From positions 1 through 43,121 of the IMG/VR virus record IMGVR_UViG_3300045988_071163: a stretch of DNA of 43,121 bases. One strand, given 5' to 3'. The DNA comes from a virus. Numbering within the stretch: position 1 is the first letter of the stretch; every line of letters starts with the position of its first letter. Position numbers and translations under genes: made by a program. Of the stretch, positions 6,394 through 35,275 are shown in pieces. A model generated the notes under the pieces. It ran no database searches and was not told the DNA's origin. It saw nothing but the letters and a program-made list of their open reading frames with translations.

Positions 6394-6414
6394 TTTAATT
6401 TCCCCTTGTTTTTT

Positions 6415-9065: not shown

Positions 9066-9069
9066 ATAA

Positions 9070-10122: not shown

Positions 10123-10132
10123 ATTTTCCCTC

Positions 10133-12079: not shown

Positions 12080-12094
12080 TTCTGCTCCCCCTTT

Positions 12095-12457: not shown

Positions 12458-12472
12458 GTTGTCTCCCTTCTT

Positions 12473-15400: not shown

Positions 15401-16843
15401 ACTATCCGAATTACTCTTCGGATTGTTGAGGATGTTTAATTCATCAAATCCTAACGTTTGAAGTTCTTTCTTTAAGTCCTTGACTTTCTTGGTTGTTCCG
15501 CCCACTGATGAGCCTGCATTCTTAGCACTGTCAGACATGTCATCCATAGCGCCGGAGCCTTTTTCTAAACCACTATAATCAATAGTAGGTAATTTAAATC
15601 CAAATAAACTTGCGACAAAGTTAGCGAACTTATTTAAAAGTTCAACCGCTACTTGTATATATGGAATAACCGCTGTAGCAAATACGCTCGCGATATTACC
15701 GATTGCACGTCTTAGCACATGAAACTGCTGTGCTAAGATACGTACAGCATTACTCGGTGTATTGATTGTACGTGCCATATCATTGAATACATCTACCTTG
15801 CTGGCATTATTCATGATGGTGATGTATCGCATGATTGCCTGTGTATTCTGGTCCCAAGTACTTACATTGCCTTGTAATCCATATTTAAGACCTGTCTGTT
15901 TGACCATCGCAACAGAAACGTTGTTACCATATTCCTTCAAGCCTTTAATCTGCCCAGACATGGCACTTTGGATTTTATCAAACGCCGTGCTTACATCTAC
16001 GTTCATCAAAGAACTATAGTCATATGATAACTGTGTAAGGTTCTGTGACATAATCTGTGCTTTGTCACTCGCTACGCCAAAACCTTCAATCATCATATTC
16101 AACGTTCCTTGGTATTCCATCCACTTGCCCGGGTCAATACCCATAGCATCACTTACTTTTTGAGCAAACGCTTCCGCACTCTGTGATGCGCTACCCATTG
16201 CAACGTCGAATAAGTTCATTTGTTCGATATATTCTGCACTTTCATTATAAAAATAACTAAAAGCAGAACCTATCGCCATTAAAATAGATTTAAATCCTCG
16301 TATTCCACCAATAGCAGAACTAATCGTTGCCATCAACCCGCCTGTGTGAGTCTTAGCACCTCTGGATTTAGAATTATAGTTATCTAAAGACTTAGATGCA
16401 GAGGCTACAGCACTTGGCATTTTATTAAACACATCAGATAACTGGTTGCTCTTCTGTGCAAGTGGTGCCATAGCATCTGAAAGTTGATTCATCTGGCCAC
16501 TAAACTTACCCAAGTCTGCTTGGTCTAGTTTGTTGATTGTTTTAGATATATTTGATAAACTGCTTAAAGTTTTTCCAAGACCGGTTTTGCCGATTTTTTC
16601 TAAAGGCTTTAACGCTTCAACGAGATTCTTTATCCCCTTAGAAAAAGCATCTATGTTTTCAGTTTTTAAACCCGAAACAACTCTATCAAATCTTGAAATA
16701 GCGTTTAAAGTGCCTGCAATGCTACTGTCGATTTTGACACTCTGGTCTAGCCTTTGAAGTGCCCCAGTTAACTTATCTATCGCTTTGACCGCTTCATCAA
16801 CATCGCTTTCAAATACTATCGATAACTTATCTACATCCGCCAT
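12473..16843 (-). CDS. Tape measure protein
   Basis: 1456 aa, helical and Ala/Lys-rich, with TM-like glycine/alanine segments and a GGSGGGSGSGGVGGGGS linker. Lies downstream of the G/GT chaperones. Confidence 0.9.
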   Translation of the reverse strand: MADVDKLSIVFESDVDEAVKAIDKLTGALQRLDQSVKIDSSIAGTLNAISRFDRVVSGLKTENIDAFSKGIKNLVEALKPLEKIGKTGLGKTLSSLSNISKTINKLDQADLGKFSGQMNQLSDAMAPLAQKSNQLSDVFNKMPSAVASASKSLDNYNSKSRGAKTHTGGLMATISSAIGGIRGFKSILMAIGSAFSYFYNESAEYIEQMNLFDVAMGSASQSAEAFAQKVSDAMGIDPGKWMEYQGTLNMMIEGFGVASDKAQIMSQNLTQLSYDYSSLMNVDVSTAFDKIQSAMSGQIKGLKEYGNNVSVAMVKQTGLKYGLQGNVSTWDQNTQAIMRYITIMNNASKVDVFNDMARTINTPSNAVRILAQQFHVLRRAIGNIASVFATAVIPYIQVAVELLNKFANFVASLFGFKLPTIDYSGLEKGSGAMDDMSDSAKNAGSSVGGTTKKVKDLKKELQTLGFDELNILNNPKSNSDSGGSGGGSGSGGVGGGGSIGDIKLPQYDFLKGLKKDTDEIEKKLKELFKPVTDSWNEYGKAVMDSFKFSLDELSKLIKSIGKSFGEVWQNGTGKKTVSEILLIVKNLCDFVGYLAKRFREAWDEAGLGTKIIQNLWDSANNLLNSLEDISKQLSKFAYSLDFKPALKSAYSLSKAFKGLSDIVGKYLSDAFKNVLLPLMKWGIEKGVPKVVSALADALKGVSGALKNLRPLITFLEKFVVVLGKLVANTILVGISALGKALKVVGESRTLIAMLTTAISSLIATMAWGKVIKDLNDTGSAINRVIEIFKMFKTYGVGAIYELTSAFAESNKMLNTFATGFHALNNASGILSGVSGAITNLGLNVGALSMAEGGAITATGLLGGAFTFLAANPLVAVIGAITVAVGAIALFTSGVKKNVDSQEVALASAEKLSDGLKEQAKNWKNAYNEAKANADAGKHNALVAQDYASRLYGIVDANGKITGSVKQAQFFVDELNRQLGTNIEIHNGVISNWDKEKGAINETIEALKRKAVVEAYSEKFIEAEKERIKAQEQLTEATNKYNESKKEENRIKAILDASKESGMAVDVAMQKQYEKQVEITNKYGKAMGDAKDKVTSITDGLNEYNTAIQSADGTVESSTAFIVEQYRTLKADGTYTYSSLVNGINDLNAKCDENGKVWQTMTKTEQEASKQARIQLLSDLAQKAFGQGKTYEQMLSTAKAKGAELTKADKDELKKQYDNLKKQADDIKAVKKEQYNALLSLLDKYGIDKKSKDGKRYVSELKKAQENGTQQGQQYIDKLAKKISKDSPKVTNEVDKTSKNSKKQFESHQAEFKVNTKPATSVLDAFMRSIPSSKPMKLDLKTDKKRFKIGDFGFDIGLFSYATGGFPDTGQMFIAREAGPELVGRIGRRTAVANNDQIVQGIASAVRSAMVGANSPNGGGTTRITVQNVLNGRAIGESVIEYHNGKVKQTGHSPLLF

Positions 16844-21397: not shown

Positions 21398-22924
21398 CTA
21401 GCCGGAATTTACAAATGACATCTGCATATTCTGGTCATCAGTTACTGTCGCTGGGTTATCTCCCTGTGGATTGCTTTGCAAATCCTTATCTTCGCTATTG
21501 ACAGTTGTATTTAATTCAGTGTTATATGCTGCGTCCAGGTACTCCCTGCTGTCCACATATACCTGCTGAGGGTCGCTGAATAAGTCAGCAGTTTGAATGG
21601 CAACTCTTGGATGGATGCCGAATGTCTTCATGTTTAGAAGCCCCTGTGTCTTGACAAGCATGTTTGTGACCTTGTTTCTAGAGAACTTGATATCAATATC
21701 TCTTAGTTTGACTTCTTCCTTAACAACTGTATTGCTTCGGTCGAGAATGTTTTTAACGATAGCGAGGAACTTTTTTTCCCCTTCATCGAACATCTCTTCA
21801 AGTCGATAAGCATCTTCTTCTGCTTCCTGCCATCCACCACTCAGCATAGATGACTGCCCTGTTGTAGAACCACTCTGCGCTTCTCTAGAAGGCATAGCGC
21901 AGATCTGCAGTAACTGGGCATATAAGTAATCACTCAGACTCTGAATTTCATTCTGATTAAGCGATGTCTCAATCGTCTTTACGGACGCCGTAGTTCCGTT
22001 TCGGCTTGTTGTGGATAATGCACCGTTCTCTCTAAGTTCGTCGTAGTCTTCCTTATTCATGTCAACGTTATCGAACCAAATGAATGACTGTACATTCTGT
22101 GCCAGTCCATTCAGTCTGTCGCTTGTGCATGTATTGATTGCATTTAATAGACCGATGGCTCTCTCAAAGCAGCCCATCTTGTCATAATCCTGTCGATATT
22201 CAACAATAGGAATTGCTCCGATACCATTTACGCTTTCTTCGACCTCACCGACATGTGTATCTGTGAACTGAAACACCCTGTCATTCGTGTAGGCCGTATA
22301 ATGCGTTTCTTCTACAACCCCTTTATCGTTCATATCACGCCAGTATGTGACTGCAAGTAACGGATCGTGAAAAATGTCGGGACTGTAGATGATGAATGTG
22401 TTCATAGGATCCAGGTTGACAATTCTGAAAGGTGTATAAGCAGTTTTATCCTTCTGAGGAAAAACCCCTCTATATCCAACACCGCATGTTAGAAATGTCT
22501 TTGCTAGTTCCTGGTCCTTTGTGTGCTTTCTTTCGTCAAAGCACATGCTGTTTAGTTCACCGATGTACCCATCGTCCTCGTCTGATGTAGTTTCGCTCTT
22601 CAATTCCTGTTCAGCCTTCTGAACATATCTGATTGGCGAGCCAAACACGAAAGCCGTCTTGAAATTAACAATCTGTGATGCGTGATTCTCTACTATCTTC
22701 TCGTTAATTTCGGGCCTTACAGGCTTCTCTCTATCAAGGATGTCCTGTCTTCCCTTCTCGTACTCGATAAGGTACTTTATATCCTTGCGGTTTAATTCGT
22801 GTGTCTGCATCGCATATGTGACTACTCTCTGAACATTATCTCTTGTGATTTCTGATTCACTTGAATAGATTGTCTTTCTGCCTCTGTTAATCACCAACGC
22901 TGCCTCCTTCCACACGAATTTCAA
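21398..22924 (-). CDS. Portal protein (SPP1 gp6-like)
   Basis: 508 aa, downstream of terL. The true start is probably the TTG at 22897 or the GTG at 22894, which follow GGAGG and overlap the upstream stop. Confidence 0.9.
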   Translation of the reverse strand: MKFVWKEAALVINRGRKTIYSSESEITRDNVQRVVTYAMQTHELNRKDIKYLIEYEKGRQDILDREKPVRPEINEKIVENHASQIVNFKTAFVFGSPIRYVQKAEQELKSETTSDEDDGYIGELNSMCFDERKHTKDQELAKTFLTCGVGYRGVFPQKDKTAYTPFRIVNLDPMNTFIIYSPDIFHDPLLAVTYWRDMNDKGVVEETHYTAYTNDRVFQFTDTHVGEVEESVNGIGAIPIVEYRQDYDKMGCFERAIGLLNAINTCTSDRLNGLAQNVQSFIWFDNVDMNKEDYDELRENGALSTTSRNGTTASVKTIETSLNQNEIQSLSDYLYAQLLQICAMPSREAQSGSTTGQSSMLSGGWQEAEEDAYRLEEMFDEGEKKFLAIVKNILDRSNTVVKEEVKLRDIDIKFSRNKVTNMLVKTQGLLNMKTFGIHPRVAIQTADLFSDPQQVYVDSREYLDAAYNTELNTTVNSEDKDLQSNPQGDNPATVTDDQNMQMSFVNSG

Positions 22925-23045
22925 TTTCTTTCTTGTCTACCTTGCACCAGAGATATAGCGTGCCGCTTGTATCGTCGCTTACTCTGCCTAGTATCTTCTT
23001 TTTCCCTCTCTTCAAGCAGAGAGGACAATATATATTCTTTTTCAT
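22887..23045 (-). CDS. Small Cys-rich (KTR-like zinc-ribbon-like) protein
   Basis: MKKNIYCPLCLKRGKKKILGRVSDDTSGTLYLWCKVDKKEIEIRVE. GGGAGGAAA RBS 5 nt before the ATG at 23045. Confidence 0.5.
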   Translation of the reverse strand: MKKNIYCPLCLKRGKKKILGRVSDDTSGTLYLWCKVDKKEIEIRVEGGSVGD

Positions 23046-23165
23046 TGATTTCCTCCCTGTAATGAACAGATATGAGGGATGCCTTGTAGGTGACATAGGG
23101 GGTAGGCAAATGAATGCAGGCATCCCTAATATCATTGTATTTTGCAGAGAGAGAAACGGCGCCTT

Positions 23166-24824
23166 TTAGCACGGTCTTTTGAATATTTCTTTTATCGTTC
23201 CATAGCCTCCGTACAGTCTGTCACACAACTGTGACAAGCTGTCGGGCGCATCGTCATGCTCGTTCTTGCCGAGTATCTTGAATGAGAACAGATTGTTCAT
23301 GAACATTGAATACTCCTTTGAGCGTTTGCCTGGCTCAAGGAAATAGAACTCTCTAATATCGGGCGCATTCTGAAATATACGCACCTCTTTTGCCTTTGTT
23401 GTCGGCGCACTGTGTGATGTTATGACACATTTGTAGCCAAGTCGTTCAAGTTCCTTCTCTACATCTTCAGCGTAGCCTTCACCACCATTATTCTTTTCGA
23501 CATCGCAGTCCTGTACACCCCACGAAGCGATTTTCTTCGCCACTTCCGGCTGCGTTATTCTCTTATCGCCGTTATTGAACACAACGTCTGGTATATATAC
23601 CGTTCCATCTGCATACTGATAGGCTATTGGAGCGCTCACGTAGTCACCGCCGCCCCAGGCAGTGTCTACCACGGTCAGTCTTCTGACTGGTTCCTCATTC
23701 GGCAGTATTCCGTTATAGAACTTCATATCTCCGCCGTTGAACAATGCGCCTTCACGTTCTACAGGCTCTCCCTGGTACTGTGCGAACCAGGATGCCATGT
23801 CATCGTTTCTCTCGAATGATGCCCTTCTCTGCTGATAGTATTCAGTAGAGAATCCAACGCCATAGTCATAGTCGAAATTGGATTCATCATTCTCATTGAG
23901 TGCTGGCAGATTCACAATCTTATACTTTCTTGACTTGAAGTTCGGATCATTCAATATAAGGTCCTGTCTTAGACCAGCCGGGTCAACAAGCGACCATCTA
24001 GTACCTATCCACAATACCTTGCTTCCCTGTTTAGCACGTGTGATGAGGTTGTTATCCACTAGTTTCCAAGTCTTGTACATACGCTCCGGATTGAGTGCTT
24101 CTTCGATACCGCCAATCAAGTCATCACCGATAAGCACGCCGTTACAGTCGCATGAACCATTCAGTGTTCCGTAGATAGAACGACATGTAAGTGTCGGATA
24201 TCTCTTCTTTCGCTCTAAATCCAGTGTGTTCAATCTAGAGTTCTGATTCACTATGACGGATGCTGGAAAAATCTCACTGTATGTATAGGTCATATTGTCA
24301 TTGATGATTTCATTTATACCTTCATAGAACGAATGCGTGATTGTATCGGAGAAACTGCTGTACAGATTCGTCTTCTCTGAATTGATTCCCATGAGCCATG
24401 TAAGAAAGAACATGATCAGTGTTGTCTTGCCTACTCGTGGCGGCATTGAAATAAACAGTTCCTGCAGGTTTCCGTCATGGAGGTCCTGCAGATCTTTTAC
24501 TACGGTTTTCAGTATCTTCATTCGAGGGCGGTAGAACTGCTCATTGACAGGTCTGTTTATCTCGAGATAGAGCATGTAGTCCTCGAACGAATAATGCGCC
24601 GTAAACAGGAATGTCTTCTTATACATCTGATACATGTTGTATCGTTCCTCGATATCCTTGCTTCTGTTGCTGTTTGCTTCAGCCAGTCTGTGCCTTAAGT
24701 CCTTGTTCAGATGTAAAAGCGTATCCTTGTCGTTCGTAGCATAGCAGTTCAGTACGATGTCATACTTGGCAGTAAGACTGTCAGTACTCTTGTACAGTTT
24801 CACTTTCTTCTTATCTATTGCCAT
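23166..24824 (-). CDS. terL: Terminase large subunit
   Basis: Walker A MPPRVGKTT and a C-terminal nuclease-like region. I chose the start at 24824 (MAIDKKK) because of the GAAGGAGGAAAT RBS. Confidence 0.9.
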   Translation of the reverse strand: MAIDKKKVKLYKSTDSLTAKYDIVLNCYATNDKDTLLHLNKDLRHRLAEANSNRSKDIEERYNMYQMYKKTFLFTAHYSFEDYMLYLEINRPVNEQFYRPRMKILKTVVKDLQDLHDGNLQELFISMPPRVGKTTLIMFFLTWLMGINSEKTNLYSSFSDTITHSFYEGINEIINDNMTYTYSEIFPASVIVNQNSRLNTLDLERKKRYPTLTCRSIYGTLNGSCDCNGVLIGDDLIGGIEEALNPERMYKTWKLVDNNLITRAKQGSKVLWIGTRWSLVDPAGLRQDLILNDPNFKSRKYKIVNLPALNENDESNFDYDYGVGFSTEYYQQRRASFERNDDMASWFAQYQGEPVEREGALFNGGDMKFYNGILPNEEPVRRLTVVDTAWGGGDYVSAPIAYQYADGTVYIPDVVFNNGDKRITQPEVAKKIASWGVQDCDVEKNNGGEGYAEDVEKELERLGYKCVITSHSAPTTKAKEVRIFQNAPDIREFYFLEPGKRSKEYSMFMNNLFSFKILGKNEHDDAPDSLSQLCDRLYGGYGTIKEIFKRPC

Positions 24825-24842
24825 ATTTCCTCCTTCATTGCA

Positions 24843-24881
24843 CAAAAAAAAGAGCCTACACCATATGTGGTGCATGGCTCT
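24843..24881 (-). terminator. Terminator directly after the recombinase gene and just upstream of the terL RBS
   Basis: agagcc..cacca tatg tggtg..ggctct compound hairpin, followed on the minus strand by U8. Confidence 0.65.
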
Positions 24882-25437
24882 AGGCTCTATGCTTATAATA
24901 CGTCGCTCTGCTCACATTGCACTGCTTGCAGGCATCTGTTATCGATACACCCTGTCTGACCAGGTTATCTACCTCTTCGATTGAGACAGTCGGTCTTCCA
25001 ATGCTCTTTCCTCTCTTGCGTGCAGCTTTGAGACCTTCAACGGTTCTCTCCACCATCATGTCATGCTCCTGCTGAGCGAGTGATGAAAGCACCTCGAGGA
25101 TTATGTTGTTTATCATCTCGATGATCCATTCCTGTCCGTCCAGTTCAATCATTGTTGTAGGCATATTAAGTATTCTTATTATGACACCCCTGTCTTGAAA
25201 GAATTTAATTTCATCTTTTATGAGTTGCTTGTTTCTTCCGAGTCTATCAAGTGCGTGGATGTATAGTTCATCCCCTTTTTTAATTATTTCCTTTAATTTG
25301 CAGTAGTTTGGTCTGTCGATTCTTGTGCCCGTGTACTTGTCACTGTAAATATAGTCTACATTGTATGAGCGCAGGCTGTCTATCTGTCTGTCGAGAGACT
25401 GCTTTCCTGTGCTCACTCGTGCGTAGCCGTATTTCAT
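24880..25437 (-). CDS. Small serine recombinase (resolvase/invertase family)
   Basis: 185 aa. MKYGYARVSTGKQSLDRQ catalytic N-terminus and a C-terminal HTH (ITDACKQCNVSRATYYKH). Confidence 0.9.
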   Translation of the reverse strand: MKYGYARVSTGKQSLDRQIDSLRSYNVDYIYSDKYTGTRIDRPNYCKLKEIIKKGDELYIHALDRLGRNKQLIKDEIKFFQDRGVIIRILNMPTTMIELDGQEWIIEMINNIILEVLSSLAQQEHDMMVERTVEGLKAARKRGKSIGRPTVSIEEVDNLVRQGVSITDACKQCNVSRATYYKHRA

Positions 25438-25706
25438 CGCTTGAATCTTCCTCTGTTGTCTTTTCTATCGGGCACTTCATCTAGTACGACTGTTCTTTCT
25501 GCTCTGTCATTGCCGCCTCGGGGTCTGATGATGATGTCGTAGTCGAGTTCGTTGCATATGTTGATTAGGATGCTGACCTTTGTGTCGCTTCTTCTAGATA
25601 TCTCACCTATACTTGCACCGCTCTTATATCCTAGTCTATCAGCAAGTCTTGCAAATGAGCTGTTATTGTCATCAATCATCTTTCTTAAGCATTCTTTTAA
25701 GTTCAT
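25434..25706 (-). CDS. HTH DNA-binding protein, translationally coupled to the recombinase
   Basis: 90 aa with SFARLADRLGYKSGASIGEISRR. ATGA overlap with the recombinase start. GGAGG RBS. Confidence 0.6.
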   Translation of the reverse strand: MNLKECLRKMIDDNNSSFARLADRLGYKSGASIGEISRRSDTKVSILINICNELDYDIIIRPRGGNDRAERTVVLDEVPDRKDNRGRFKR

Positions 25707-25726
25707 AATATCTACCTCCTAGGCAT

Positions 25727-25755
25727 AGTATATCATTGCTCTCGGCATCTGTCAA
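25727..25755 (-). promoter_or_regulatory. Promoter TTGACA-N17-TATACT for the HTH-recombinase unit
   Basis: On the minus strand the -35 is at 25755..25750 and the -10 at 25732..25727. Confidence 0.65.
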
Positions 25756-25768
25756 CAATATTTATTGT
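25755..25768. promoter_or_regulatory. Palindrome ACAATA-tt-TATTGT abutting the -35; candidate operator or recombinase site
   Basis: Perfect 6-bp arms. ACAATAAAAA recurs at 25889..25898 and 25903..25912. Confidence 0.35.
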
Positions 25769-25926
25769 ATGGTCTTAAAATTAGGCCGTCGGTGGTAGCG
25801 GGGTTGAGCAGTATTGGTAAAACCATCAAAAAAATGGGGAGGGCGGGGGTATTAAAAAGATTATGTCTAAAAAACGAACGATTAAAAGACAATAAAAAAT
25901 ATACAATAAAAATTATTTATTATCTA

Positions 25927-25954
25927 TTGACATGAACAATATTTAATATATAAT
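25927..25954 (+). promoter_or_regulatory. Near-consensus promoter TTGACA-N16-TATAAT for the amidoligase operon
   Basis: -35 at 25927..25932 and -10 at 25949..25954, about 257 nt upstream of the ATG at 26211. Confidence 0.7.
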
Positions 25955-25960
25955 GATGGT

Positions 25961-25982
25961 GTAATCAATAAATGTTGATTAC
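25961..25982 (+). promoter_or_regulatory. 5'-proximal 8-bp perfect hairpin at the predicted transcript start
   Basis: gtaatcaa taaatg ttgattac. Confidence 0.45.
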
Positions 25983-26073
25983 TTGATAGTTCATTGACAA
26001 TTGAATACGTGAAAATCTCAAAAGGAAAAGAGAAACGTATATATACATATTGCTATGTATAGTATTAAAAATA

Positions 26074-26136
26074 AAAGAGATTAATTCACAACGTACCAAT
26101 CTATATATAGATGTACATATTAGAATTAATCTCTTT
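26074..26136 (+). promoter_or_regulatory. Long leader hairpin: 14-bp perfect inverted repeat enclosing a 14-bp palindrome
   Basis: aaagagattaattc (26074..26087) pairs with gaattaatctcttt (26123..26136). The inner palindrome atctatatatagat is at 26099..26112. Followed by TTTATATT. Confidence 0.5.
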
Positions 26137-26210
26137 ATATTAGTGCTATATGTTTTAGCCGACAAATAGCAACATGATTATATCATATGTTTTTCTTAAG
26201 GTAAAACATT

Positions 26211-27602
26211 ATGGATAATTTAGTAAAGTATTATGACCACAACGAATTTTCATTTATTTCTATGGAGACATTAGAACAATTAGAAGATGAATATTATATC
26301 GAATATTCTACTTTCGAAGATTGCTATATCAATAAAGATACCAGCGATTATGGTTATTGTGATAATGACCTTTTAACTAATGATACTATAGAAAATGGAG
26401 ATTATATTTATTGTGAAGATACAGAAGACTACCAACCAGAAGATTACACTGTTTATCTAACAGACAAAGAAACTTATGTATCAAAAGATTATGATTACTA
26501 TAAATGTGATGAATGCGGCGATTGTTTCAGCAGCGATTATGATATGCATTGTAGAAATGGCAACTATTATTGTGATACCTGTTGGGAAGATATGGAACCC
26601 GTTATTTATGATTACCATTGTTATCGTGATGGTTATTACCCTCGTTCTCTAGCACGTGAAAGCCCGTTATTTATGGGGTTTGAATTAGAAGTTGATGACG
26701 TGCGCGGCGATTGTGAAAGTTTAGCATCAAGCGTATTAGATGGTGATATGGATGACACATTACATTGTGAATATGATTGTACAGTTGCTTTTGAGTTTAT
26801 TTCCCAACCTTGCACATTGGAATATCACAAGAACCAACATTATAATGATTGGTTTTTCAGTGAATTAGATGGCAAGTGTGAAAGTCATGACGCTGGCACT
26901 TGTGGTTTACACGTGCACGTTAACAAGTCGTTTTTTAATGGCCGCGGTTATGACAGATTGAAAACAATCCTTTTCTTCTTTAAGGATGAATTATTTCAAT
27001 TTTCACGCCGTCAATATTGGGGTTATAGTTATAGCGACTTTGGGGAAAAAATCGGTAAAAGCAGCGTGACAATGCATAAAGCAAAAAACACCAAAGAATA
27101 CGGGCATTCTACATGGTTCAATGAAAACAATAGTTCTACTTATGAGTTTAGATTTTTCCGTGGTACATTGAAATATGAAACATTCATGGCAAGTCTTGAA
27201 TTAGTCCACAATATCTGCTTAGCTGCAATGAGTAATACAGATGTTATCACATGGGATTCATTGCTAGATGGTGATTATTGTAGAGAATATAGTAACTCAC
27301 GCGACATCTATTGCGATAGTGAATTAAATTTAGGTGAGTTAGAAAAGAAAGAAAACGAACTAATGCAAGTAATCAAAAAGGCTTTAAATGAAAATGCTTT
27401 TATCAATCTAAATCATGTTTGTGTTGGTGAAATTGTAGGAGATACAATCGTTTTCTATTGTCTCTATAACAATAACGGAGAACTACACAAACGCCGCCAG
27501 AACTATATTAATTTATCGGAGTTTGATACTTTTGAAACACATGGTTATTACTACTTATGTAATAGAAAAGAACTTTCTAACTTGTTAGGAGGTGAATTCT
27601 AA
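26211..27602 (+). CDS. Amidoligase_2-family (glutamine-synthetase/GCS2-like COOH-NH2 ligase) protein with an acidic Tyr/Cys-rich N-terminal extension
   Basis: Motif series GFELEVDD ... CEYDCTVAFEFISQPCTL ... TCGLHVHVNK ... TYEFRFFRGTL. CDECGDC...CDTC zinc-ribbon-like motif in the N-terminal 150 aa. Confidence 0.8.
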   Translation: MDNLVKYYDHNEFSFISMETLEQLEDEYYIEYSTFEDCYINKDTSDYGYCDNDLLTNDTIENGDYIYCEDTEDYQPEDYTVYLTDKETYVSKDYDYYKCDECGDCFSSDYDMHCRNGNYYCDTCWEDMEPVIYDYHCYRDGYYPRSLARESPLFMGFELEVDDVRGDCESLASSVLDGDMDDTLHCEYDCTVAFEFISQPCTLEYHKNQHYNDWFFSELDGKCESHDAGTCGLHVHVNKSFFNGRGYDRLKTILFFFKDELFQFSRRQYWGYSYSDFGEKIGKSSVTMHKAKNTKEYGHSTWFNENNSSTYEFRFFRGTLKYETFMASLELVHNICLAAMSNTDVITWDSLLDGDYCREYSNSRDIYCDSELNLGELEKKENELMQVIKKALNENAFINLNHVCVGEIVGDTIVFYCLYNNNGELHKRRQNYINLSEFDTFETHGYYYLCNRKELSNLLGGEF

Positions 27603-28468
27603 TGTGTATTATTGCAATCAAACCAGCTCATCACAAAATGATTGATGAAAGCATCATAGAAACAATGTTTGATACCAACCCCGACGGCGCGGGTTATATG
27701 TACGCTTATAACAATAGAGTACATATTAATAAAGGTTTCATGACATTAAAAGAATTGTTAAATAGTCTTGATAAACTGAAAAAGAAAATTAATATTGATA
27801 AAATACCTTTAATCTTACATTTTCGTATTTCCACTAGTGGGAAAACAGATGGCGCCACTTGCCATCCTTTTCCTGTCACTAGTGACCTAAACGCTTTACG
27901 AAAAACACACCTTATAACCAACTTAGGAATGGCACACAATGGGATTATTAGTGACTTTGAGGAAAAGAAAAGTATCTATAGTGATACACAATTATTTGTG
28001 AATAAGTGTGTATCATATCTCTATGATATGAACCCTAAATTCTTACACGATGATAGAACGAAAAAGCTGCTAGAACCTATTATAAATGGTTCGCGCCTGG
28101 CGTTCTTAGACAGTCACGGCAATATATACCAATATGGCGATTGGATCGAAAGCGATGGTATCTATTATAGCAATGAGGGCTATATCCCATGGCAATCACG
28201 TTATTATCATTATAACGATGCTTATTATAGTAAGTATTATTATGGTGATGATTATTATTACTATGGTGATGAGGACCAGGAACTAAAAATTTTAGAGAAA
28301 TTAGAAGCCTATGAGGAAATAACAAATTATGAAGATATCTGTTATATTCGTACAATGTATGATATAGTAGAAGAAAGCGGCAACACTGAAATTTATGACG
28401 TAATGGGAATGTTTGTCAAGGTGGACCCAGTCGCAAGCCGTGCTATTCGTATAGAGGGGGTTGACTAA
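27602..28468 (+). CDS. Class-II (Ntn) glutamine amidotransferase-like / thiol peptidase-like protein with a Tyr-rich C-terminal extension
   Basis: MCIIA (Cys2), NPDGAGY, LHFRISTSG, CHPF and MAHNGII. TAATG overlap with the upstream gene. GGAGGTG RBS. Confidence 0.8.
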   Translation: MCIIAIKPAHHKMIDESIIETMFDTNPDGAGYMYAYNNRVHINKGFMTLKELLNSLDKLKKKINIDKIPLILHFRISTSGKTDGATCHPFPVTSDLNALRKTHLITNLGMAHNGIISDFEEKKSIYSDTQLFVNKCVSYLYDMNPKFLHDDRTKKLLEPIINGSRLAFLDSHGNIYQYGDWIESDGIYYSNEGYIPWQSRYYHYNDAYYSKYYYGDDYYYYGDEDQELKILEKLEAYEEITNYEDICYIRTMYDIVEESGNTEIYDVMGMFVKVDPVASRAIRIEGVD

Positions 28469-28612
28469 TTGCTTAGATTATTGATTTATTTGTGTTTCTT
28501 TCCGTTGTGGTTGATATGGTGGTTTATTAAAGCAGTTTTCTTCTTTATGTCATGGTTGGAAATCTGCTTACTTAGTTTCAATGGTAAGAGAATTATAAAA
28601 AGAAGATGGTAA
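28469..28612 (+). CDS. Possible 47-aa hydrophobic membrane peptide (TTG start), not in the ORF track
   Basis: LLRLLIYLCFFPLWLIWWFIKAVFFFMSWLEICLLSFNGKRIIKRRW. It starts directly after the upstream stop, with GAGGGGG 10 nt upstream, and ends inside the operon terminator. Confidence 0.4.
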   Translation: MLRLLIYLCFFPLWLIWWFIKAVFFFMSWLEICLLSFNGKRIIKRRW

Positions 28613-28626
28613 CATCTTCTTTTTTG
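28601..28626 (+). terminator. Rho-independent terminator of the amidoligase operon
   Basis: agaagatg gtaa catcttct 8-bp perfect stem followed by T6. Confidence 0.75.
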
Positions 28627-28660
28627 TCGTTCATAAACATTTAATGATCATAAGTAAATA

Positions 28661-28905
28661 AGCGTTTTAAGCGTTCTAAGAGACTTTTATATAATGGTGA
28701 TATAAATATACCATAACCACATAAACAACGCTTAGAATTGAAATGTGGGCTATTTATATAATGCAGCTCATACACACAAATTCGTACATATAAACTACAG
28801 GGCTTTAAATAGCCCTTTTAAGCGTGTTTAATCATATCGTGATATAATTATCATCTTTCATATAAACGTGTCTTAGAATTGAAATATAGCCTATTTAAGG
28901 CTATA
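28661..28905 (+). repeat. Two imperfect tandem units of ~142-151 bp, each with ttttaagcgt, gtgatataa, cttagaattgaaat and ctattta blocks
   Basis: The block pairs are 28665/28816, 28697/28839 and 28731/28872. Each unit has a TATAAT-like element and a short hairpin (28799..28816; 28886..28904). Confidence 0.6.
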
Positions 28906-28906
28906 G

Positions 28907-28947
28907 GCGCATGTAATCTATACCATGAGCGCACGTAATCTATACCA
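28907..28947 (+). repeat. Two 19-bp direct repeats gcgca[t/c]gtaatctatacca at 22-bp phasing
   Basis: 28907..28925 and 28929..28947 differ at one position. A third partial copy, atctataca, is at 28971..28979. Confidence 0.8.
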
Positions 28948-29000
28948 ATATAAGCATAGAACTACAAAAAATCTATACACAAGAAAAATGGAAAAAATAC

Positions 29001-29068
29001 GGCAAAATTTCAGATGGCGTGCGGCGCCGTCAAAATTTTCGCACGCGTGGTGGCAAAATTTTCACGTG
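29001..29068 (+). repeat. Three g[gt]caaaattt(t)c iteron-like repeats interleaved with GC palindromes (GGCGCC, ACGCGT, CACGTG)
   Basis: Copies start at 29001, 29029 and 29052. The last two are 23 bp apart. Confidence 0.6.
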
Positions 29069-29075
29069 CATATGT

Positions 29076-29108
29076 AAAAAGGTGAGCATAAAACGCTCAC
29101 CTTTTTTT
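29076..29108. terminator. Bidirectional terminator overlapping the terS stop
   Basis: aggtgagc ataaaac gctcacct 8-bp stem, with A5 on the left and T7 on the right. Confidence 0.75.
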
Positions 29109-29589
29109 ATTTCTCTTCAAAATCTGCATCTATAACAACGGCAGAAATTTCCTTTTCAATCTGTTCAATTGACTTGCTTTCAGAAACCATGTGATGAATC
29201 TTCACATCCTGGTTATCTCTATAGCCGAAATTGGATTTCAGCAGGAATACAGAAGCATTTCTATCCATAGTTCCTTGAAGTGCTCCTTGTTCAAGGTTAT
29301 CAGCCATCAGATTCAGCATCTGTGAGAGAAAAATCGTTGTTTCATGATTAGGTCTTTCAGCAATCCATCTATTGACCGTATCTGGTGAAACTCCAAGACA
29401 AACACAGAGTCCTCTCAAAGTAGGAATTCTGTTGTTTTCATCGCAGTAAGTGAGATATTCATAACTTCTGTCCTTGATTACATCGAAATCGTTGATTGTC
29501 GCTCTTTTTAACTTGAGCATCTCTCTTGCACGTGCGACAGGCAGTTTGCTTTCACCTATCTCGTTGTAGTCGAACTTCTTCTTCGCCAT
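29107..29589 (-). CDS. terS: Terminase small subunit
   Basis: HTH GLCVCLGVSPDTVNRW and FLLKSNFGYRD are typical of TerS. I chose the start at 29589 (MAKKKF) because of the GGAGG RBS. Confidence 0.8.
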   Translation of the reverse strand: MAKKKFDYNEIGESKLPVARAREMLKLKRATINDFDVIKDRSYEYLTYCDENNRIPTLRGLCVCLGVSPDTVNRWIAERPNHETTIFLSQMLNLMADNLEQGALQGTMDRNASVFLLKSNFGYRDNQDVKIHHMVSESKSIEQIEKEISAVVIDADFEEK

Positions 29590-29849
29590 TTTTTTACCTC
29601 CAAAAAATCGAAATTCCAAAAAAAAATTGACAAAATAATTGACCGATGGTCAGATTCAACCCCCTTCCCTCATGTGTCACATTCACACATCCCCCCCGGC
29701 AAAAAAATCGCACACACACAAGGGGGATGGGTAGTCTGTATATGCATCCGAGGGGGATTTGGGGGTTTTTAACCCCTTTTCCTATACTCCATATATATAA
29801 ATACATATATACCTCTTTTATATTCTCTATACTATTTACTTATATATAA

Positions 29850-29945
29850 AATACCCCAATACCCCATAATATATAAAAAAAGTAAGTATATATCAGCATT
29901 TTTTACAGGGGTATTTTTCTAACAGTTAGGGGTATTAGGGGTACT
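29850..29945. repeat. Inverted GGGGTATT motif array
   Basis: AATACCCCAATACCCC at 29850..29865 faces GGGGTATTAGGGGTACT at 29929..29945. Extra plus-strand copies occur at 29908 and, degenerate, at 29959, 29993 and 30002. Confidence 0.6.
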
Positions 29946-30036
29946 GTGGTACCATTTAGGGGACTATTATTTAAATAGTGAAAAATACATATGGGGTGTT
30001 AGGGGCGTTTTAAAACACCATAAGTTGTGTACCCCC

Positions 30037-32493
30037 CTACTTTTTCACCAAAAACCACTGCTTATGAATCACCTTCAATTCACAATGGTGTGTTTCTGTT
30101 CCGTCGAAATAAGCGATTGCCCCTTTCAGATTCTTGTAGAAGGTGTTTCTGCCGGCAACTCGGTATCTACATTCATCACACCATTCAGTGTACATCTCAT
30201 ACACTCTGTTTGCTCTCATTGATGTAAGAGTCATGCCGTCATCGACCCAGTCGAACTCATTGAGGAACTCGATAACATGATTACTCTCGATAGCGAACTC
30301 GTATTCCAAGTCCTTGTCCTCATCTATCTCATTGAACTTGTAGCCATTCTCAATCAGTCTGACATAACCATCAATGCTCCATCGCAATACTGCTGGCAGT
30401 ACATCATCACTTGTTAGGAGGGCATCTAATCCCGGTATTGCCTTGAATACATGAATATCATCCACTCTTGATTCATCTGATGTGAATGTATTGGCGAACT
30501 TGTGCTTCGTACCCTCGAATCTTCTGAGCCATCCGCCGTTTGACTTGTTTGCACGTGGCAGTTCGTTGCAGTCAATGAATATCTTGCATCTAGGCTTGAA
30601 TTCGATACGTGGTTTGCCCTTCACATCTGTGGATATGACATCGTTCGATGTGATCGCCTTGAAGATTGGCTCTGCCTCCTTGATATCGCTTGTCGCTTCA
30701 TGACAGAAATTAACATACTTGCCTAATAACTGTAACGTGTCAAAGCGTCCGCCAAGACGGCTCAACTCTAATGTACTGCATAATTTTCCGTCGCCTAGCA
30801 GTGCACTCAGCACCTTTGTCAGTACGCTCTTTCCATTGCTTCCAGTTCCATAGAACAGGTATGCCTTGTCTTGTATGCTGTGTTCCATGAACACCGAGCC
30901 GAAGTATTCTGCAAATCGTTTGATTAACTTCTCATCACTACTTGTGATGCTGTTCAAGAAATCATCCCAATCTTGGCTGTATGCATTTTCTCTGTATTCA
31001 TAGTTGAGTACATAATCATTGAAGTCATCTGGGTTACGCTTGCTAGAGAACCTGTAATATCCATCGAACGGATTCTCCGTGAAGTAAAGCGTACCATTCT
31101 TGAGGTTCAGACAGTTCACTTGGTTTGGTAGGGTATCATCATATACGATAGTTCTGACCTTGTTCAGTATCGCTGATTCGAGATTATACGATACATCGAA
31201 CATCTCCATGATTCCCTGTCTGATGAGTGCATCATCACATCTGCTCCAGTACGTGCCGTTGAAACGGTAGAAGCCGAGTGATGGATTGCATCTTAATTTA
31301 TAGTCATAGTTGGCAATAAACTCGTGAGCATATTCATCGTTTGTCTTGCCTCTCGTCAGTTCCCTTCGTATTTCCTTCATTTCCTCACCGTCAGCGCCTA
31401 AAACTTCCTTGGCATACTGCAATATGGCTTTCTTCTTAACACGGCTCATATAAGGGCTGTGCGCACTGTAGACATATTCCATCAGTTCATCTATATCAGA
31501 CATGGTAGTCTTCAGATACCATAGTGTGCCGTCCACTGCATGCTTTTCTAAGAGTTCGCTAGGTAGAACGCCTGCGCAGTAACAGTCGCTCACATCCTTA
31601 CCGTACTCTCTAGGGATGTTGACTATGTCGAACGGAATATTGTGTGCGAATAACTGCTTTGCAGTCGCTATAGTGAACTGCACACCTCTTCCATCGTTGT
31701 CGTAGCAGATAGCCACACGCTTGAATTTCTTGGCAATCTTGCATAGATATTCTGTCTGCTTATTTGAAAGTCTTGTGGCGCTCGATAGAACTCTATACCC
31801 TTCTTGATAGAAAGTTAAGAAGTCAAACACTCCTTCTGCAATGACGATTGTATCATTGTTGATATAAGTCTCGCTTCTGTTAAGCGTGTCAAGACCATAA
31901 AGCGTATTCTCTTTGAATGCTTCCTCTAGATATGGTTTTTTGTATTTAACGACATCATACTGGCTTCTGTTTCTAGCGCAGTAGTAAACGCAGTTGTTGT
32001 TCTTGAATACAGGAATGATGATACGTGGTACATCTACCATTTCACCATTAGGCGCTTTCTCCTTGAATGTGTGGCTTCCTATGTACAGATTATTGATGGT
32101 ACTGTCAGTTATCTTTCTCTGATGTAGATAATCTATATCATCATCCGTAAGGTCATTATGCCATTGCAGTATTGCATTATTCCATTCTCTATAGTTCTGC
32201 TTGTATTCTGTATCGTTGAACGCCAGATTAAATCGACTGCACATATCCTTGAACGCCATAGACTTATCACCTTCATACTTTGCATATGCAAGCATGTCTG
32301 TGACATCGCCACCGACACCATCACTGAATGAGAACCACGAGTCCTCGCTCACCATAACACTGTTAGGATTCTGGCCATCATGGATAAAAGAGGGGCAACG
32401 ATATGTGCCCCCGTTCTTGTGCAGTTCTATGCCCAGTTCTGTAGCAAGTTCAACGCAGTTTATATTCTGTTTTATTTCGTCATACAACTTCAT
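30037..32493 (-). CDS. Bifunctional DNA primase / SF3 helicase (CHC2 zinc finger, Toprim, D5/P4-type P-loop)
   Basis: CPSFIHDGQNPNS zinc finger, a Toprim-like IVIAEGVFD...YDNDGRG, and Walker A GTGSNGKSV. Confidence 0.85.
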   Translation of the reverse strand: MKLYDEIKQNINCVELATELGIELHKNGGTYRCPSFIHDGQNPNSVMVSEDSWFSFSDGVGGDVTDMLAYAKYEGDKSMAFKDMCSRFNLAFNDTEYKQNYREWNNAILQWHNDLTDDDIDYLHQRKITDSTINNLYIGSHTFKEKAPNGEMVDVPRIIIPVFKNNNCVYYCARNRSQYDVVKYKKPYLEEAFKENTLYGLDTLNRSETYINNDTIVIAEGVFDFLTFYQEGYRVLSSATRLSNKQTEYLCKIAKKFKRVAICYDNDGRGVQFTIATAKQLFAHNIPFDIVNIPREYGKDVSDCYCAGVLPSELLEKHAVDGTLWYLKTTMSDIDELMEYVYSAHSPYMSRVKKKAILQYAKEVLGADGEEMKEIRRELTRGKTNDEYAHEFIANYDYKLRCNPSLGFYRFNGTYWSRCDDALIRQGIMEMFDVSYNLESAILNKVRTIVYDDTLPNQVNCLNLKNGTLYFTENPFDGYYRFSSKRNPDDFNDYVLNYEYRENAYSQDWDDFLNSITSSDEKLIKRFAEYFGSVFMEHSIQDKAYLFYGTGSNGKSVLTKVLSALLGDGKLCSTLELSRLGGRFDTLQLLGKYVNFCHEATSDIKEAEPIFKAITSNDVISTDVKGKPRIEFKPRCKIFIDCNELPRANKSNGGWLRRFEGTKHKFANTFTSDESRVDDIHVFKAIPGLDALLTSDDVLPAVLRWSIDGYVRLIENGYKFNEIDEDKDLEYEFAIESNHVIEFLNEFDWVDDGMTLTSMRANRVYEMYTEWCDECRYRVAGRNTFYKNLKGAIAYFDGTETHHCELKVIHKQWFLVKK

Positions 32494-34501: not shown

Positions 34502-34668
34502 TCTATTCCCTCCTGTTCTATAGGATATAGAGTTAGTATCGCATATTGTTCCTGTGCATACGCTCTATACCCTATGATTCTATATTTGTTTCTTAGTTCA
34601 TCGATTGCATCTCCTAGTTGTCTCATTGAATAATAATCAACTTTTTTGTAGATGTATTTTGCACTCAC
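34498..34668 (-). CDS. Small ORF (56 aa; GTG start) coupled to the MazF-like gene upstream and to the next gene downstream
   Basis: GTGA overlap with the MazF-like stop and ATGA overlap with the next start. Product: VSAKYIYKKVDYYSMRQLGDAIDELRNKYRIIGYRAYAQEQYAILTLYPIEQEGIE. Confidence 0.4.
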   Translation of the reverse strand: MSAKYIYKKVDYYSMRQLGDAIDELRNKYRIIGYRAYAQEQYAILTLYPIEQEGIE

Positions 34669-35177
34669 CCAATCACCTTTTCTAATAAGTTCTCATACAG
34701 TTTCTTGTACATATCTCTTTCAGCAGTAAGTTGGATATTCTCCTGCATTGAGGCCAACTCCATATCCTTGATAGGCGCAGATGGTTCTGGAGCATTAATA
34801 GATACCGTAGATACCGTATCTGTGCCCATACCTAGAGAGTGTCTTAATCCACGTTCGATATTCTTCATCTCTTCATCGCTTACAGTTCTTACATAAGTGC
34901 CGATTCTATCCTTATAAACGGTATGGATGGTTTCGCAGAGGGCAGTAGATGGACTCTTGCAGAATACATCAGCATGAGTAGGCATATCTCTCTTAATTTT
35001 TGTTGTAAGATAGACAGCCTCAACATATTCGCTTCCTCTGTTCAGATGGTCATCTGATACGATTACAGCAGGTCTTCCTGCCGTATCACATGAATATGAA
35101 TCATTGAAATTCTTAGAATATGTGATATAGAAGATATCTCCTCTTTTAACTTCTTTTGGGTTTAAACTATAGTTCAT
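34665..35177 (-). CDS. MazF/PemK/EndoA-like endoribonuclease-fold protein with a ~55-aa C-terminal extension
   Basis: VKRGDIFYI...AGRPAVIVSDDHLNRGSEYVEAVYLTTKIKRDMPTHADV...VSDEEMKNIERGLRHSLGM aligns by eye along B. subtilis EndoA. AAGGAG RBS 7 nt before the ATG at 35177. Confidence 0.75.
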   Translation of the reverse strand: MNYSLNPKEVKRGDIFYITYSKNFNDSYSCDTAGRPAVIVSDDHLNRGSEYVEAVYLTTKIKRDMPTHADVFCKSPSTALCETIHTVYKDRIGTYVRTVSDEEMKNIERGLRHSLGMGTDTVSTVSINAPEPSAPIKDMELASMQENIQLTAERDMYKKLYENLLEKVIG

Positions 35178-35275
35178 AATATTTCTCCTTAATTTATTCT
35201 TTCCAAAAAAATCCAATAGCAATAAGTATGATTGCACCTGCCATGAGCAGAATGCCTATGATATCCATAATTGCA

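Follow-up and report, generated by a model that had tools for sequence, protein, structure and literature searches.

The gap between the terminase genes terS and terL of a temperate siphovirus: probably an old accessory-gene slot with exchangeable cargo

The subject of this analysis is the viral sequence IMGVR_UViG_3300045988_071163 from IMG/VR, of which positions 1 to 43,121, that is the whole stretch of 43,121 nucleotides, constitute the window referred to below. In this window the genes for the small and the large terminase subunit, terS and terL, are separated by a gap of 4,282 bp (24825-29106), in agreement with the separation of about 4.28 kb and the gene coordinates given in a preliminary description of this DNA. 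The gap holds the genes of a serine recombinase and of a 90-amino-acid protein on the minus strand, an intergenic region of about 500 bp and three genes on the plus strand. Our analysis suggests that the gap is probably an old, conserved slot for accessory genes at the junction of the early and the late module, occupied by two divergent and self-sufficient units of the "moron" type, and not a recent insertion. The features on which this reading is based are the following.

23166-24824, minus strand: terL, large terminase subunit, 552 amino acids (phrog_38, E-value 8e-65; Terminase-T7_RNaseH-like)
24843-24881, minus strand: predicted intrinsic terminator between the recombinase gene and the ribosome-binding site of terL (folding free energy, dG, -28.4, z -5.3; 13-bp stem and U8)
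24880-25437, minus strand: small serine recombinase of the resolvase/invertase type, 185 amino acids (PF00239 Resolvase, E-value 5e-27; HTH_7; phrog_125)
25434-25706, minus strand: putative XRE-like helix-turn-helix (HTH) regulator, 90 amino acids (open reading frame; weak HTH_3 match in a paralogue and in orthologues)
25755-25727, minus strand: predicted sigma-A-type promoter of the HTH-recombinase unit, directed toward terL (TTGACA-17-TATACT with TG extension, 11 of 12 consensus positions)
25786-25850, no strand assigned: G+C-rich island between the divergent promoters, conserved in the alignment
25927-25954, plus strand: predicted sigma-A/sigma-70-type promoter of the amidoligase operon (TTGACA-16-TATAAT, 12 of 12 consensus positions)
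25995-26210, plus strand: almost invariant operon leader of about 215 nucleotides (94% mean column identity in 16 distinct relatives)
26211-27602, plus strand: amidoligase, 463 amino acids (phrog_16683, E-value 9e-33; PF12224 below its cut-off)
27602-28468, plus strand: class-II (Ntn) glutamine amidotransferase-like protein (GAT), 288 amino acids (invariant residues, AlphaFold2 model and Foldseek)
28469-28612, plus strand: gene of a hydrophobic, membrane-type peptide of 47 amino acids (open reading frame with TTG start and the ribosome-binding site AGGGGG)
28598-28625, plus strand: predicted intrinsic terminator of the plus-strand operon (dG -16.5, z -5.3; stem followed by U6; conserved in relatives)
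28626-29075, no strand assigned: non-coding repeat block (repeats D3, D5 and I1 and reading of the sequence)
29076-29106, both strands: predicted two-way intrinsic terminator directly after the terS stop codon (12-bp stem; dG -17.2/-18.6, z -5.3/-4.2)
29107-29589, minus strand: terS, small terminase subunit of the P22 gp3 / GP3_package type, 160 amino acids (PF16677, E-value 8e-14; phrog_606)

Relatives of this locus were drawn from IMG/VR, Logan and ENA. In identical relatives the gene callers give the same terminase products of 160 and 552 amino acids, and the ratio of nonsynonymous to synonymous substitution rates (dN/dS) is 0.025 for terS and 0.024 for terL. The IMG/VR set comprised 27 loci with a terL identity of 92-100%, of which 24 extend far enough to cover the gap, and all 24 contain the genes for the recombinase, the HTH protein, the amidoligase, the GAT and the 47-amino-acid peptide in the same order, orientation and place. 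Two shorter contigs agree with this layout as far as they reach, and nine out of nine further, independent contigs from Logan and ENA, which share an identical terL and are in some cases 55-88 kb long, show it again. The 11-kb region is colinear, its only large indel being an extra 300 bp in five loci which contain a second copy of the HTH gene. An empty site, with terS next to terL, was found in none of 33 close contexts, and no variation in presence or absence of the block exists among the close relatives (terL at least 92% identical). The segment lies in the same place in all of them, which is the outcome that the preliminary description itself had named as speaking against its reading of the gap as a recent, self-contained, recombinase-bearing cassette.

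The rates of divergence point in the same direction. Among 17 genomes the mean synonymous divergence (dS) is 0.27-0.82 for the genes of the gap and 0.33-0.55 for terS, terL, the portal gene and the primase gene, and the block has therefore diverged together with its flanks. All genes tested are under purifying selection (dN/dS 0.02-0.24). Nucleotide diversity is two to three times higher at 25500-27700 (0.16-0.20) than in terL, the recombinase gene and terS (0.05-0.08), which agrees with an exchange of cargo alleles under a constraint that is relaxed or diversifying. At the ends of the block, neither direct nor inverted repeats were found.

More distant relatives, which were reached via recombinase orthologues of 56-73% identity, indicate which parts of the arrangement are stable and which are exchanged. 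In L302 (terL 91% identical) the layout is the same, with three small HTH-type genes in a row and with an amidoligase and a GAT of 55% and 54% identity. In L107 (terL 57%) it is also the same, with an additional 3.2 kb between the HTH and the recombinase gene that encode YjcQ, a Gp49/HTH_3 toxin-antitoxin-like pair and a Rha anti-repressor, and L304 and L305 (terL 56%) share it in spite of a different replication module (polymerase B). In L306 (terL 55%) the order is terS, terminator, an antisense gene of 109 codons for a different product, two HTH genes, recombinase and terL, without amidoligase and GAT. Finally, in L029 (terL 52%) terS adjoins terL and no recombinase gene is present there. 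The recombinase thus stays beside terL with a different antisense cargo (L306) or with 3.2 kb of added genes (L107), and its identity tracks that of terL (58% versus 56%). Because of the layouts of L302, L107, L304/L305 and L306, the HTH-recombinase pair has evidently long been established upstream of terL in these phages, and the antisense position is a slot for exchangeable content. The block does not form a single unit, its faster-evolving part being the plus-strand operon. That the slot is old and stable in position, and that its cargo is exchanged, is directly supported by these comparisons. The assumption of a recent cassette is not borne out by any of them, neither by the search for an empty site or for terminal repeats, nor by dS, nor by the recombinase, which co-diverges with terL.

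Base composition had been taken as a further sign of foreign origin, since spot counts suggested a low G+C content of the insert. Indeed, the plus-strand operon is mildly atypical in composition: the G+C content is 0.335 for the amidoligase gene (z -1.4) and 0.347 for the GAT gene (z -1.0), compared with a mean of 0.377 and a standard deviation of 0.030 for the 48 genes, and the tetranucleotide distance is highest at 26-29 kb (z 2.5-2.6), with the next highest values at 8-10.5 kb (z about 2). The two G+C values nevertheless lie within the range of the genome, where five other genes are lower in G+C than these two, and the low content is confined to the plus-strand operon, the recombinase and HTH genes being flank-like. 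The recombinase gene (0.432) and terL (0.444) are in fact the two genes with the highest G+C content of the genome. The earlier contrast between two samples of 60 bases was overstated because they compared the extremes of the genome.

Both units possess predicted signals of their own, the conservation of which is directly supported by the alignments. The divergent promoters of the preliminary description could be confirmed as sequence matches: the plus-strand promoter is kept at no fewer than 10 of 12 positions and the minus-strand promoter at 11 of 12 in the upstream regions of 31 out of 31 distinct relatives, including those with an extra HTH paralogue. Both persist within a stretch of a nucleotide diversity of about 0.18, the most variable DNA of the locus, and both were found again in L304 and L306. 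Promoter-like matches are not in excess in the region as a whole (26 found, 29 expected), of which these two are the best of the sigma-70 type. The hairpins at 24843-24881 and directly after terS, which had been described as the two boundaries of the insert, both fold strongly. The first adopts the same fold in 19 of 21 variants of the spacer, and at the equivalent place L302 and L304 also have a terminator after the recombinase gene, whereas none was found in L306. The second is invariant in 17 aligned relatives, and a terminator after terS is also present in the distant L302, L304 and L306. A third one at 28598-28625 had been missed; it would end the plus-strand operon well before 29106. Equivalents of it follow the GAT gene in L304 and the antisense cargo in L304 and L306. 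The plus-strand operon does converge on terS and the late genes, as had been noted.

The problem that this arrangement poses for late transcription is likewise real. Terminators stand before terL, and no promoter lies between the one at 24843-24881 and the ribosome-binding site of terL, exactly as stated before. What had been overlooked is that the minus-strand promoter at 25755-25727 points through the HTH and recombinase genes toward terL; no other sigma-A-type promoter upstream of this gene is conserved. We infer that terL and the late genes would need regulated read-through or processive anti-termination, or else a start or leakage at the minus-strand promoter, because predicted terminators lie both after terS and between this promoter and terL. 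As a minus-strand late promoter within the repeat block, only 28874-28847 (9 of 12 positions) came into question, and it was discarded since it is not conserved.

The intergenic and terminal parts of the gap contain several conserved non-coding elements. The leader lies within the hypervariable stretch directly before the amidoligase start and folds as a long, imperfect hairpin or palindrome of about 170 nucleotides (26028-26200; dG -63 for 25960-26225, z -5.9), with the perfect 14-bp inverted repeat AAAGAGATTAATTC/GAATTAATCTCTTT as its core. Over its 69 pairs we counted one compensatory change, about 17 one-sided changes and five broken cells, in sequences that are too alike for an analysis of covariation. 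The palindrome is single-copy and confined to the close clade. It could act as a regulatory RNA or be cut by RNase III, or else serve as an operator or as the site of a recombinase. The G+C-rich island is also single-copy in the genome and shows no sign of folding on the two strands (z 0.2 and -0.5). An Rfam search of 24700-30100 (E-value up to 1) yielded just a sub-threshold chance match to antisense_SR1 (23.6 bits, gathering threshold 45), and a search for tRNA genes found none.

The non-coding repeat block between the operon terminator and the terS terminator contains a repeat of about 141 bp in two copies, both of which include a TGnTATAAT-like box, together with tandem GCGCAYGTAATCTATACCA and with GTTCATAAACATTTWA repeats, which vary from one to four copies among the relatives. 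The motif AAATTTTGMC occurs three times in the window (0.55 expected), every time at 29001-29061 on the minus strand beside the terS terminator, and similar CAAAATTTGAC repeats are found at the same place, just after this terminator, in the distant L304 and L306. These repeats may be protein-binding sites, either for packaging (pac/terS binding) or for late transcription. An open reading frame at 28925-29077 could be ruled out as coding, as indels in relatives break its frame.

The preliminary description had rightly recognized a small serine recombinase in the gap. Its product matches the Resolvase family over the catalytic domain, and the match to HTH_7 (E-value 7e-5, 23.3 bits) is just under the cut-off of 23.8. 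The catalytic serine motif GYARVS and the motif DRLGRN align to Sin and to gamma-delta resolvase, GYARVS also to Gin, and the C-terminal region can be aligned through the C-termini of gamma-delta resolvase and Sin. Among solved structures, E-values of about 1e-22 were obtained alike for Sin, for the resolvases of gamma-delta and Tn3 and for Gin, and among GenBank phages the identity reaches at most 37%, equally to resolvases and invertases, so that the type cannot be assigned. Since dN/dS is as low as 0.049, a sign of strong purifying selection, the recombinase is by this measure clearly functional.

The stop codon of the 90-amino-acid gene overlaps the recombinase start (ATGA). An open reading frame is present there as previously described, but the label "HTH protein" rests on weak HTH_3 matches of relatives, namely a paralogue in L292 (E-value 0.0017) and the orthologue in L107 (E-value 0.013); the product itself has no Pfam match, and the gene preceding the recombinase in L302 and L307 matches HTH_3 faintly or weakly. 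The label seems plausible on this basis. The dN/dS value of the gene is 0.13. In seven loci (L006, L014, L022, L024, L027, L292 and L301) an extra gene of about 300 bp is inserted between 25720 and 25756, which encodes an 82-amino-acid paralogue of the 90-amino-acid protein and has its own copy of a TTGACA-17-TATAGT promoter; the three consecutive HTH-type genes of L302 were mentioned above. An HTH-recombinase pair of 55% identity is also found away from terL in another type of phage (L307). In addition, L136 (also L128, L137, L140, L143 and L147) contains at 6400-16400 a non-phage integrative mobilisable element, which encodes a relaxase and NikA as well as a tyrosine integrase and a large serine recombinase, and which carries an amidoligase, a GATase_6 protein and a small resolvase consecutively on one strand. 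Because of this triad and the pair in L307, some general link of amidoligase, GATase and small-resolvase genes with mobile DNA is conceivable.

As to the cargo of the plus strand, the amidoligase scores 19.4 bits against PF12224 (Amidoligase_2), below the cut-off of 22, and many of its homologues at 30-45% identity carry this domain. The motifs GxELEVD, SHDAGTCGLHVHV, FSRR and EFRxFRGTL of its core are invariant and common to the PF12224-bearing homologues, the invariant residues being E158, E160, D162, D189, E195, H226, H234, H236, R266, R267, E312, R314 and R317. The AlphaFold2 model (mean confidence, pLDDT, 89) was matched by Foldseek to YbdK (1tt4, 1r8g), to Dop (9cku, 7oy3) and PafA and to GmaS (9qur), with E-values of 5e-4 to 5e-3 and probabilities of 0.98-1.0. 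The template modelling (TM) scores are low (0.24-0.27) because the query has extra domains. On the strength of this model, the core is predicted to be a carboxylate-amine ligase of the glutamine-synthetase / gamma-glutamylcysteine-ligase-like type (GS/GCL/PafA superfamily fold). The acidic, cysteine-rich N-terminus matches LIM-type zinc fingers by profile. It is the least constrained part of the protein within the clade, with a dN/dS of 0.24 versus 0.085 for the core, and is probably the part that picks the target.

The GAT gene has the same orientation, and its start overlaps the amidoligase stop at 27602. The protein begins with MCIIA, and Cys2 after the initiator methionine is invariant in 25 homologues, as are R75, N113-G114 and D128. 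It has no Pfam or NCBIfam match itself, but one homologue carries PF13230, the orthologue in L304 matches PF13230 weakly, and homologues are named "predicted glutamine amidotransferase". By profile, HFRIxTHG and HNGII are aligned to GlmS. Residues 1-195 of the AlphaFold2 model have mostly a pLDDT above 85, and the top Foldseek matches are the glutaminase domains of GFAT, GFAT-1 and GlmS as well as PurF and EgtC (E-values 1e-6 to 3e-3); the C-terminal tail is rich in tyrosine and aspartate. Searches of the PDB with the sequences of single cargo proteins gave nothing useful, and profiles gave just LIM domains and a weak match to GlmS. The gene of the 47-amino-acid peptide is present in all relatives with 61-100% identity and a dN/dS of 0.21, and no family match was obtained for it in Pfam or PHROG. 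Conserved residues, profiles and models together lend the gene identities and folds direct support.

Adjacent amidoligase and GAT genes are not restricted to this phage group, but occur in more than 25 distant and unrelated viral loci, mostly without a recombinase nearby. The pair is known from LUZ24-like Pseudomonas phages (PMC3890496), OM43 phages (PMC10580990) and Clostridium prophages. PMC10580990 and PMC11318856 attribute the prediction of the pair to Iyer et al. 2009; the predicted role is to modify the cell envelope or to exclude superinfecting phages. The literature on the pair cites this 2009 prediction or a possible partnership in base hypermodification, and contains no experiments. 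The partners of the 2009 prediction, an ATP-grasp protein and a gamma-glutamyl cyclotransferase, have no corresponding domain in the block according to Pfam and PHROG.

Taken as an accessory slot, the gap could work as follows. Unit 1 on the minus strand would run from its sigma-A promoter through the HTH regulator and the serine recombinase to the strong terminator before terL. Unit 2 on the plus strand, antisense to the late genes, would lead from the consensus promoter via an invariant structured leader of 250 nucleotides to amidoligase, GAT and the 47-amino-acid peptide and end at its own terminator. We infer that both units would be transcribed from the repressed prophage by the host RNA polymerase, the terminators at 24843-24881, 28598-28625 and 29076-29106 keeping this transcription out of terL and terS. 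The HTH protein, judged by its position, and possibly the recombinase, by analogy with Tn3 resolvase at res, may regulate the divergent promoters. The enzyme pair would use glutamine-derived ammonia and ATP to form an amide or isopeptide link on some target, which the variable zinc-finger domain might select. The beneficiary would be the lysogen, or the phage when it contends with other phages or with host defences. During lytic growth, terL and the structural genes could be transcribed by terminator read-through of a modified polymerase or by leakage from the minus-strand promoter.

Several points weigh against this interpretation. Neither PADLOC nor NCBIfam contains a family for the cargo proteins, and the G+C content of the cargo is no outlier in the genome (z -1.0 to -1.4). 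No anti-terminator gene was recognized among the proteins of the window, and the strong, conserved terminator just before terL is awkward if the minus-strand promoter feeds terL. The function of the promoters and terminators is itself a prediction from consensus, folding and conservation. With regard to the role of the recombinase, no cognate site became apparent as inverted repeats flanking segments near the gene or in the tail-fibre region, and no segment of at least 100 bp in opposite orientation was found genome-wide among 173 locus alignments, which cover each kilobase with 1 to 173 loci; as candidate sites the palindrome at 26028-26200 and the G+C-rich island are left. Finally, the HTH-recombinase pair is so stably linked to terL across lineages of about 55% identity that it may serve a core function of the phage and not be cargo. 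From its position beside the packaging genes one may speculate that the recombinase acts on the genome as a whole, for instance by resolving dimers or by cyclising terminally redundant DNA.

Some of the other explanations concern the recombinase as an agent of rearrangement. If the block were a mobile cassette that its own serine recombinase had recently brought between terS and terL, two genes adjacent until then, the promoters and terminators of the block would be accounted for, as would the genome-wide maximum of the tetranucleotide distance at 26-29 kb, the adjacency of terS and terL in L029 and the occurrence of the amidoligase, GATase and small-resolvase triad in the unrelated element L136. 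We consider such a recent insertion extremely unlikely: an empty site is lacking in all 33 close contexts, which by the preliminary description's own standard already contradicts it, dS within the block equals that of the flanks, and the block is not bounded by terminal repeats. In addition, the recombinase gene is flank-like in G+C content (0.432), co-diverges with terL (58% versus 56%) and remains at terL when the cargo differs, as in L306 and L107, and most amidoligase-GAT pairs elsewhere have no recombinase nearby. Scarcely better placed is the possibility of a DNA invertase of the Gin/Hin/Cin type that flips a promoter or a host-range segment. The match to phrog_125 "DNA invertase" (E-value 5e-48), the presence of Gin among the best solved relatives and the neighbourhood of the divergent promoters would fit, but the identity to known invertases (32-37%) is the same as that to resolvases. 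Moreover, long inverted repeats surround no segment near the gene or in the tail-fibre region, no inverted segment of at least 100 bp emerged from the 173 locus alignments, and in each of the 31 relatives the plus-strand promoter is directed toward the amidoligase.

Two further explanations have somewhat more in their favour, although we regard both as unlikely. The HTH-recombinase pair could be a core device of genome maintenance, for example for Cre/lox-like resolution or cyclisation at a site in the headful terminal redundancy, or for the resolution of replication dimers, in which case the palindrome at 26028-26200 or the G+C-rich island would be the recombinase site. The recombinase gene lies directly upstream of terL down to a terL identity of about 55% whatever the cargo, its dN/dS is 0.049, terS is of the P22 gp3 headful type, and a near-invariant palindrome of 170 bp and a conserved G+C-rich island lie beside the gene in hypervariable DNA; resolvases (Sin, gamma-delta and Tn3) are among the best solved relatives, and no invertible segment was found. 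Palindrome and island occur, however, in the close clade alone, L107 and L108 having neither, while the recombinase is far more widespread, and an RNA role would fit equally well since the palindrome lies within the transcribed leader of the operon. No repeated half-sites of 12 bp were identified, the genome already has a tyrosine integrase, and in L307 the HTH-recombinase pair (55% identity) is located away from terL. Classical resolvases, moreover, require supercoiled substrates. We would give a slightly better, still small chance to a role of the amidoligase-GAT operon in the lytic cycle, in which it would either hypermodify bases of the phage DNA or modify a protein of the virion or of the packaging machinery, hence its site between the terminase genes. 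In viral metagenomes, amidoligase and amidotransferase genes co-occur with clusters for thymidine hypermodification (PMC8989533), and the pair is common in strictly lytic phages (PMC3890496). The window encodes a MazG-type nucleoside triphosphate (NTP) pyrophosphohydrolase and a weakly Thy1-like protein, L108 has a Thy1-like gene (phrog_6721) between terL and the amidoligase pair, and the structural relatives Dop and PafA act on proteins. No 5-hydroxymethyldeoxyuridine kinase, amino-acid:DNA transferase or deoxyuridine monophosphate hydroxymethylase was, on the other hand, recognized in the window. With its orientation antisense to the late genes, its consensus promoter of the host type and the terminators on its sides, the operon shows the pattern of genes expressed in the prophage; L306 lacks the pair with the rest kept, and the fast-evolving zinc-finger N-terminus fits a variable external target better than a constant component of the phage.

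Beyond the accessory slot that we favour, more far-reaching interpretations can be drawn up, but seem quite improbable to us: either the HTH-recombinase pair, with the palindrome beside it, is for Firmicute siphoviruses what Cre/lox is for P1, built on a serine recombinase and located where headful packaging begins, or the leader is a new cis-regulatory RNA that controls a prophage-expressed amidoligase/GAT conflict system, in which the zinc-finger domain would evolve along with its target.

The remaining sequence of the window provides the setting. It corresponds to the human-metagenome scaffold ERZ28572628, scaffold_251, of ENA (43,121 bp; locus L294). The first 55 bases (1-55) are repeated exactly at 43067-43121 as an assembly overlap, which points to a complete genome of about 43,066 bp, either circular or with circular permutation. 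A tyrosine integrase is encoded at 1338-2471, because of which we regard the phage as temperate. Endolysin, tail, head, portal, primase, helicase, single-stranded DNA-binding protein, a Sak4-like annealing protein and an exonuclease are also encoded, and judged by this gene content the phage would be a temperate siphovirus of about 43 kb. Protein homologues are named from genomes of Holdemanella porci and of Catenibacterium, including Catenibacterium mitsuokai, and the host is probably Holdemanella or Catenibacterium, which would place the phage in a gut Erysipelotrichaceae phage group. A megablast search of 22000-31000 against 50,697 GenBank phages gave no match. By terL, the closest isolated phage is Clostridium phage Maintenon (ON453900) with 42% identity; a terL scan of GTDB genomes retrieved just relatives of 43-45% identity, by which the host could not be pinned down, and a scan with terS recovered the close clade alone.

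A few observations were made next to the terminase genes and elsewhere in the genome. Just upstream of the terL ribosome-binding site, at 24833/24834, several relatives (among others L005, L009, L011, L016, L027 and L028) have an insert of 9-24 bp which resembles the start of terL (TTCATCTATTGCTGTGTTTCATCA versus TTATCTATTGCCATATTTCCTCC) and looks like a decayed tandem duplication of the 5' end of terL. Between terL and the portal gene lies a small gene (22887-23135) of 52 codons as called in relatives and up to 82 here, with a CxxC...C motif, which relatives keep down to 54-64% identity and which holds a 16-bp inverted repeat of 94% identity (23069-23084 / 23118-23133). Upstream of terS, a variable non-coding region of about 400 bp (29640-30036, nucleotide diversity up to 0.21) contains G and C runs and repeated ATACCCCT/GGGGTAT motifs in both orientations (e.g. 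29854-29880 and 29914-29940), and may hold promoter or regulatory sites for terS. The tail protein (6415-8301) is found with 73-96% identity in many IMG/VR contigs outside the terL set (L187-L266); the tail module has therefore apparently been exchanged among phages with other head and packaging modules (mosaicism). Three genes of the early region are listed separately.

34665-35237: MazF-like growth inhibitor (phrog_1936)
37963-38397: MazG-type NTP pyrophosphohydrolase
38291-38917: phrog_6721 protein with weak similarity to Thy1 (ThyX-like)

For annotation, the locus is a reminder that a split terS-terL pair with a recombinase gene in between should not be taken for a fresh insertion or an assembly problem. 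In this gut Erysipelotrichaceae phage group the split appears to be the ancestral layout and the slot a place of cargo exchange. The region is also a tractable setting for the widespread amidoligase-GAT pair predicted in 2009, as it combines a temperate phage, a consensus promoter, an invariant leader, a fast-evolving zinc finger and natural relatives without the pair (L306). The strong, conserved terminator right before terL predicts a regulated late read-through in a phage group in which anti-termination is unstudied. As the slot is of a known general kind and its cargo a known enzyme pair, a phage specialist will find little surprise in it, and the elements that merit experiment are the few conserved ones.

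Among known systems, the closest comparison is with the morons of lambdoid phages, e.g. bor and lom of lambda and the morons of HK97 and HK022 (the Hendrix/Juhala concept). Common to both are extra genes between conserved late or packaging genes with a host-type promoter and terminator of their own, one unit being antisense to the late operon like bor, a composition that may be somewhat off, and a content that varies between related phages with constant flanks. In contrast to these morons, two divergent units instead of one gene are found here, the slot splits terS from terL, and the HTH and serine recombinase unit is as old and conserved as terL. Expression of the units in the lysogen is, in the present case, a prediction from sequence.

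The cargo can be compared with other phage amidoligase-GAT pairs, with which it shares an Amidoligase_2-type ligase next to an amidotransferase with an N-terminal cysteine, recurring in unrelated viral contigs. It differs from them by its location in a temperate Firmicute phage within an antisense, terminator-fenced operon, by the LIM-like zinc-finger N-terminus of the ligase and the 47-amino-acid membrane peptide that follows, by the lack of an ATP-grasp protein and a gamma-glutamyl cyclotransferase, and by an amidoligase below the Pfam cut-off.

The recombinase resembles those of the Tn3/gamma-delta tnpR-res systems and Sin in size, domain order and catalytic serine motif, and in that its gene borders a region of divergent promoters; Tn3 resolvase binds such a region and represses both promoters. 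Here, unlike in those systems, there is no transposase and no res-like array of half-sites was identified, the identity is about 33-35%, an HTH gene is translationally coupled upstream, and nothing in the data indicates that the element is mobile. The Cre/lox system of P1 is placed near pac, and by analogy the common feature would be a gene for a site-specific recombinase kept beside the packaging functions of a phage of the headful type. Cre belongs to the tyrosine recombinases, and with no site defined here the parallel is one of pure analogy. In Maintenon, finally, terS and terL are non-adjacent as well and about 2.65 kb apart, with small open reading frames on both strands and two tRNA genes between them; the gap of this distantly related phage, unlike the present one, contains neither recombinase nor amidoligase nor GAT.

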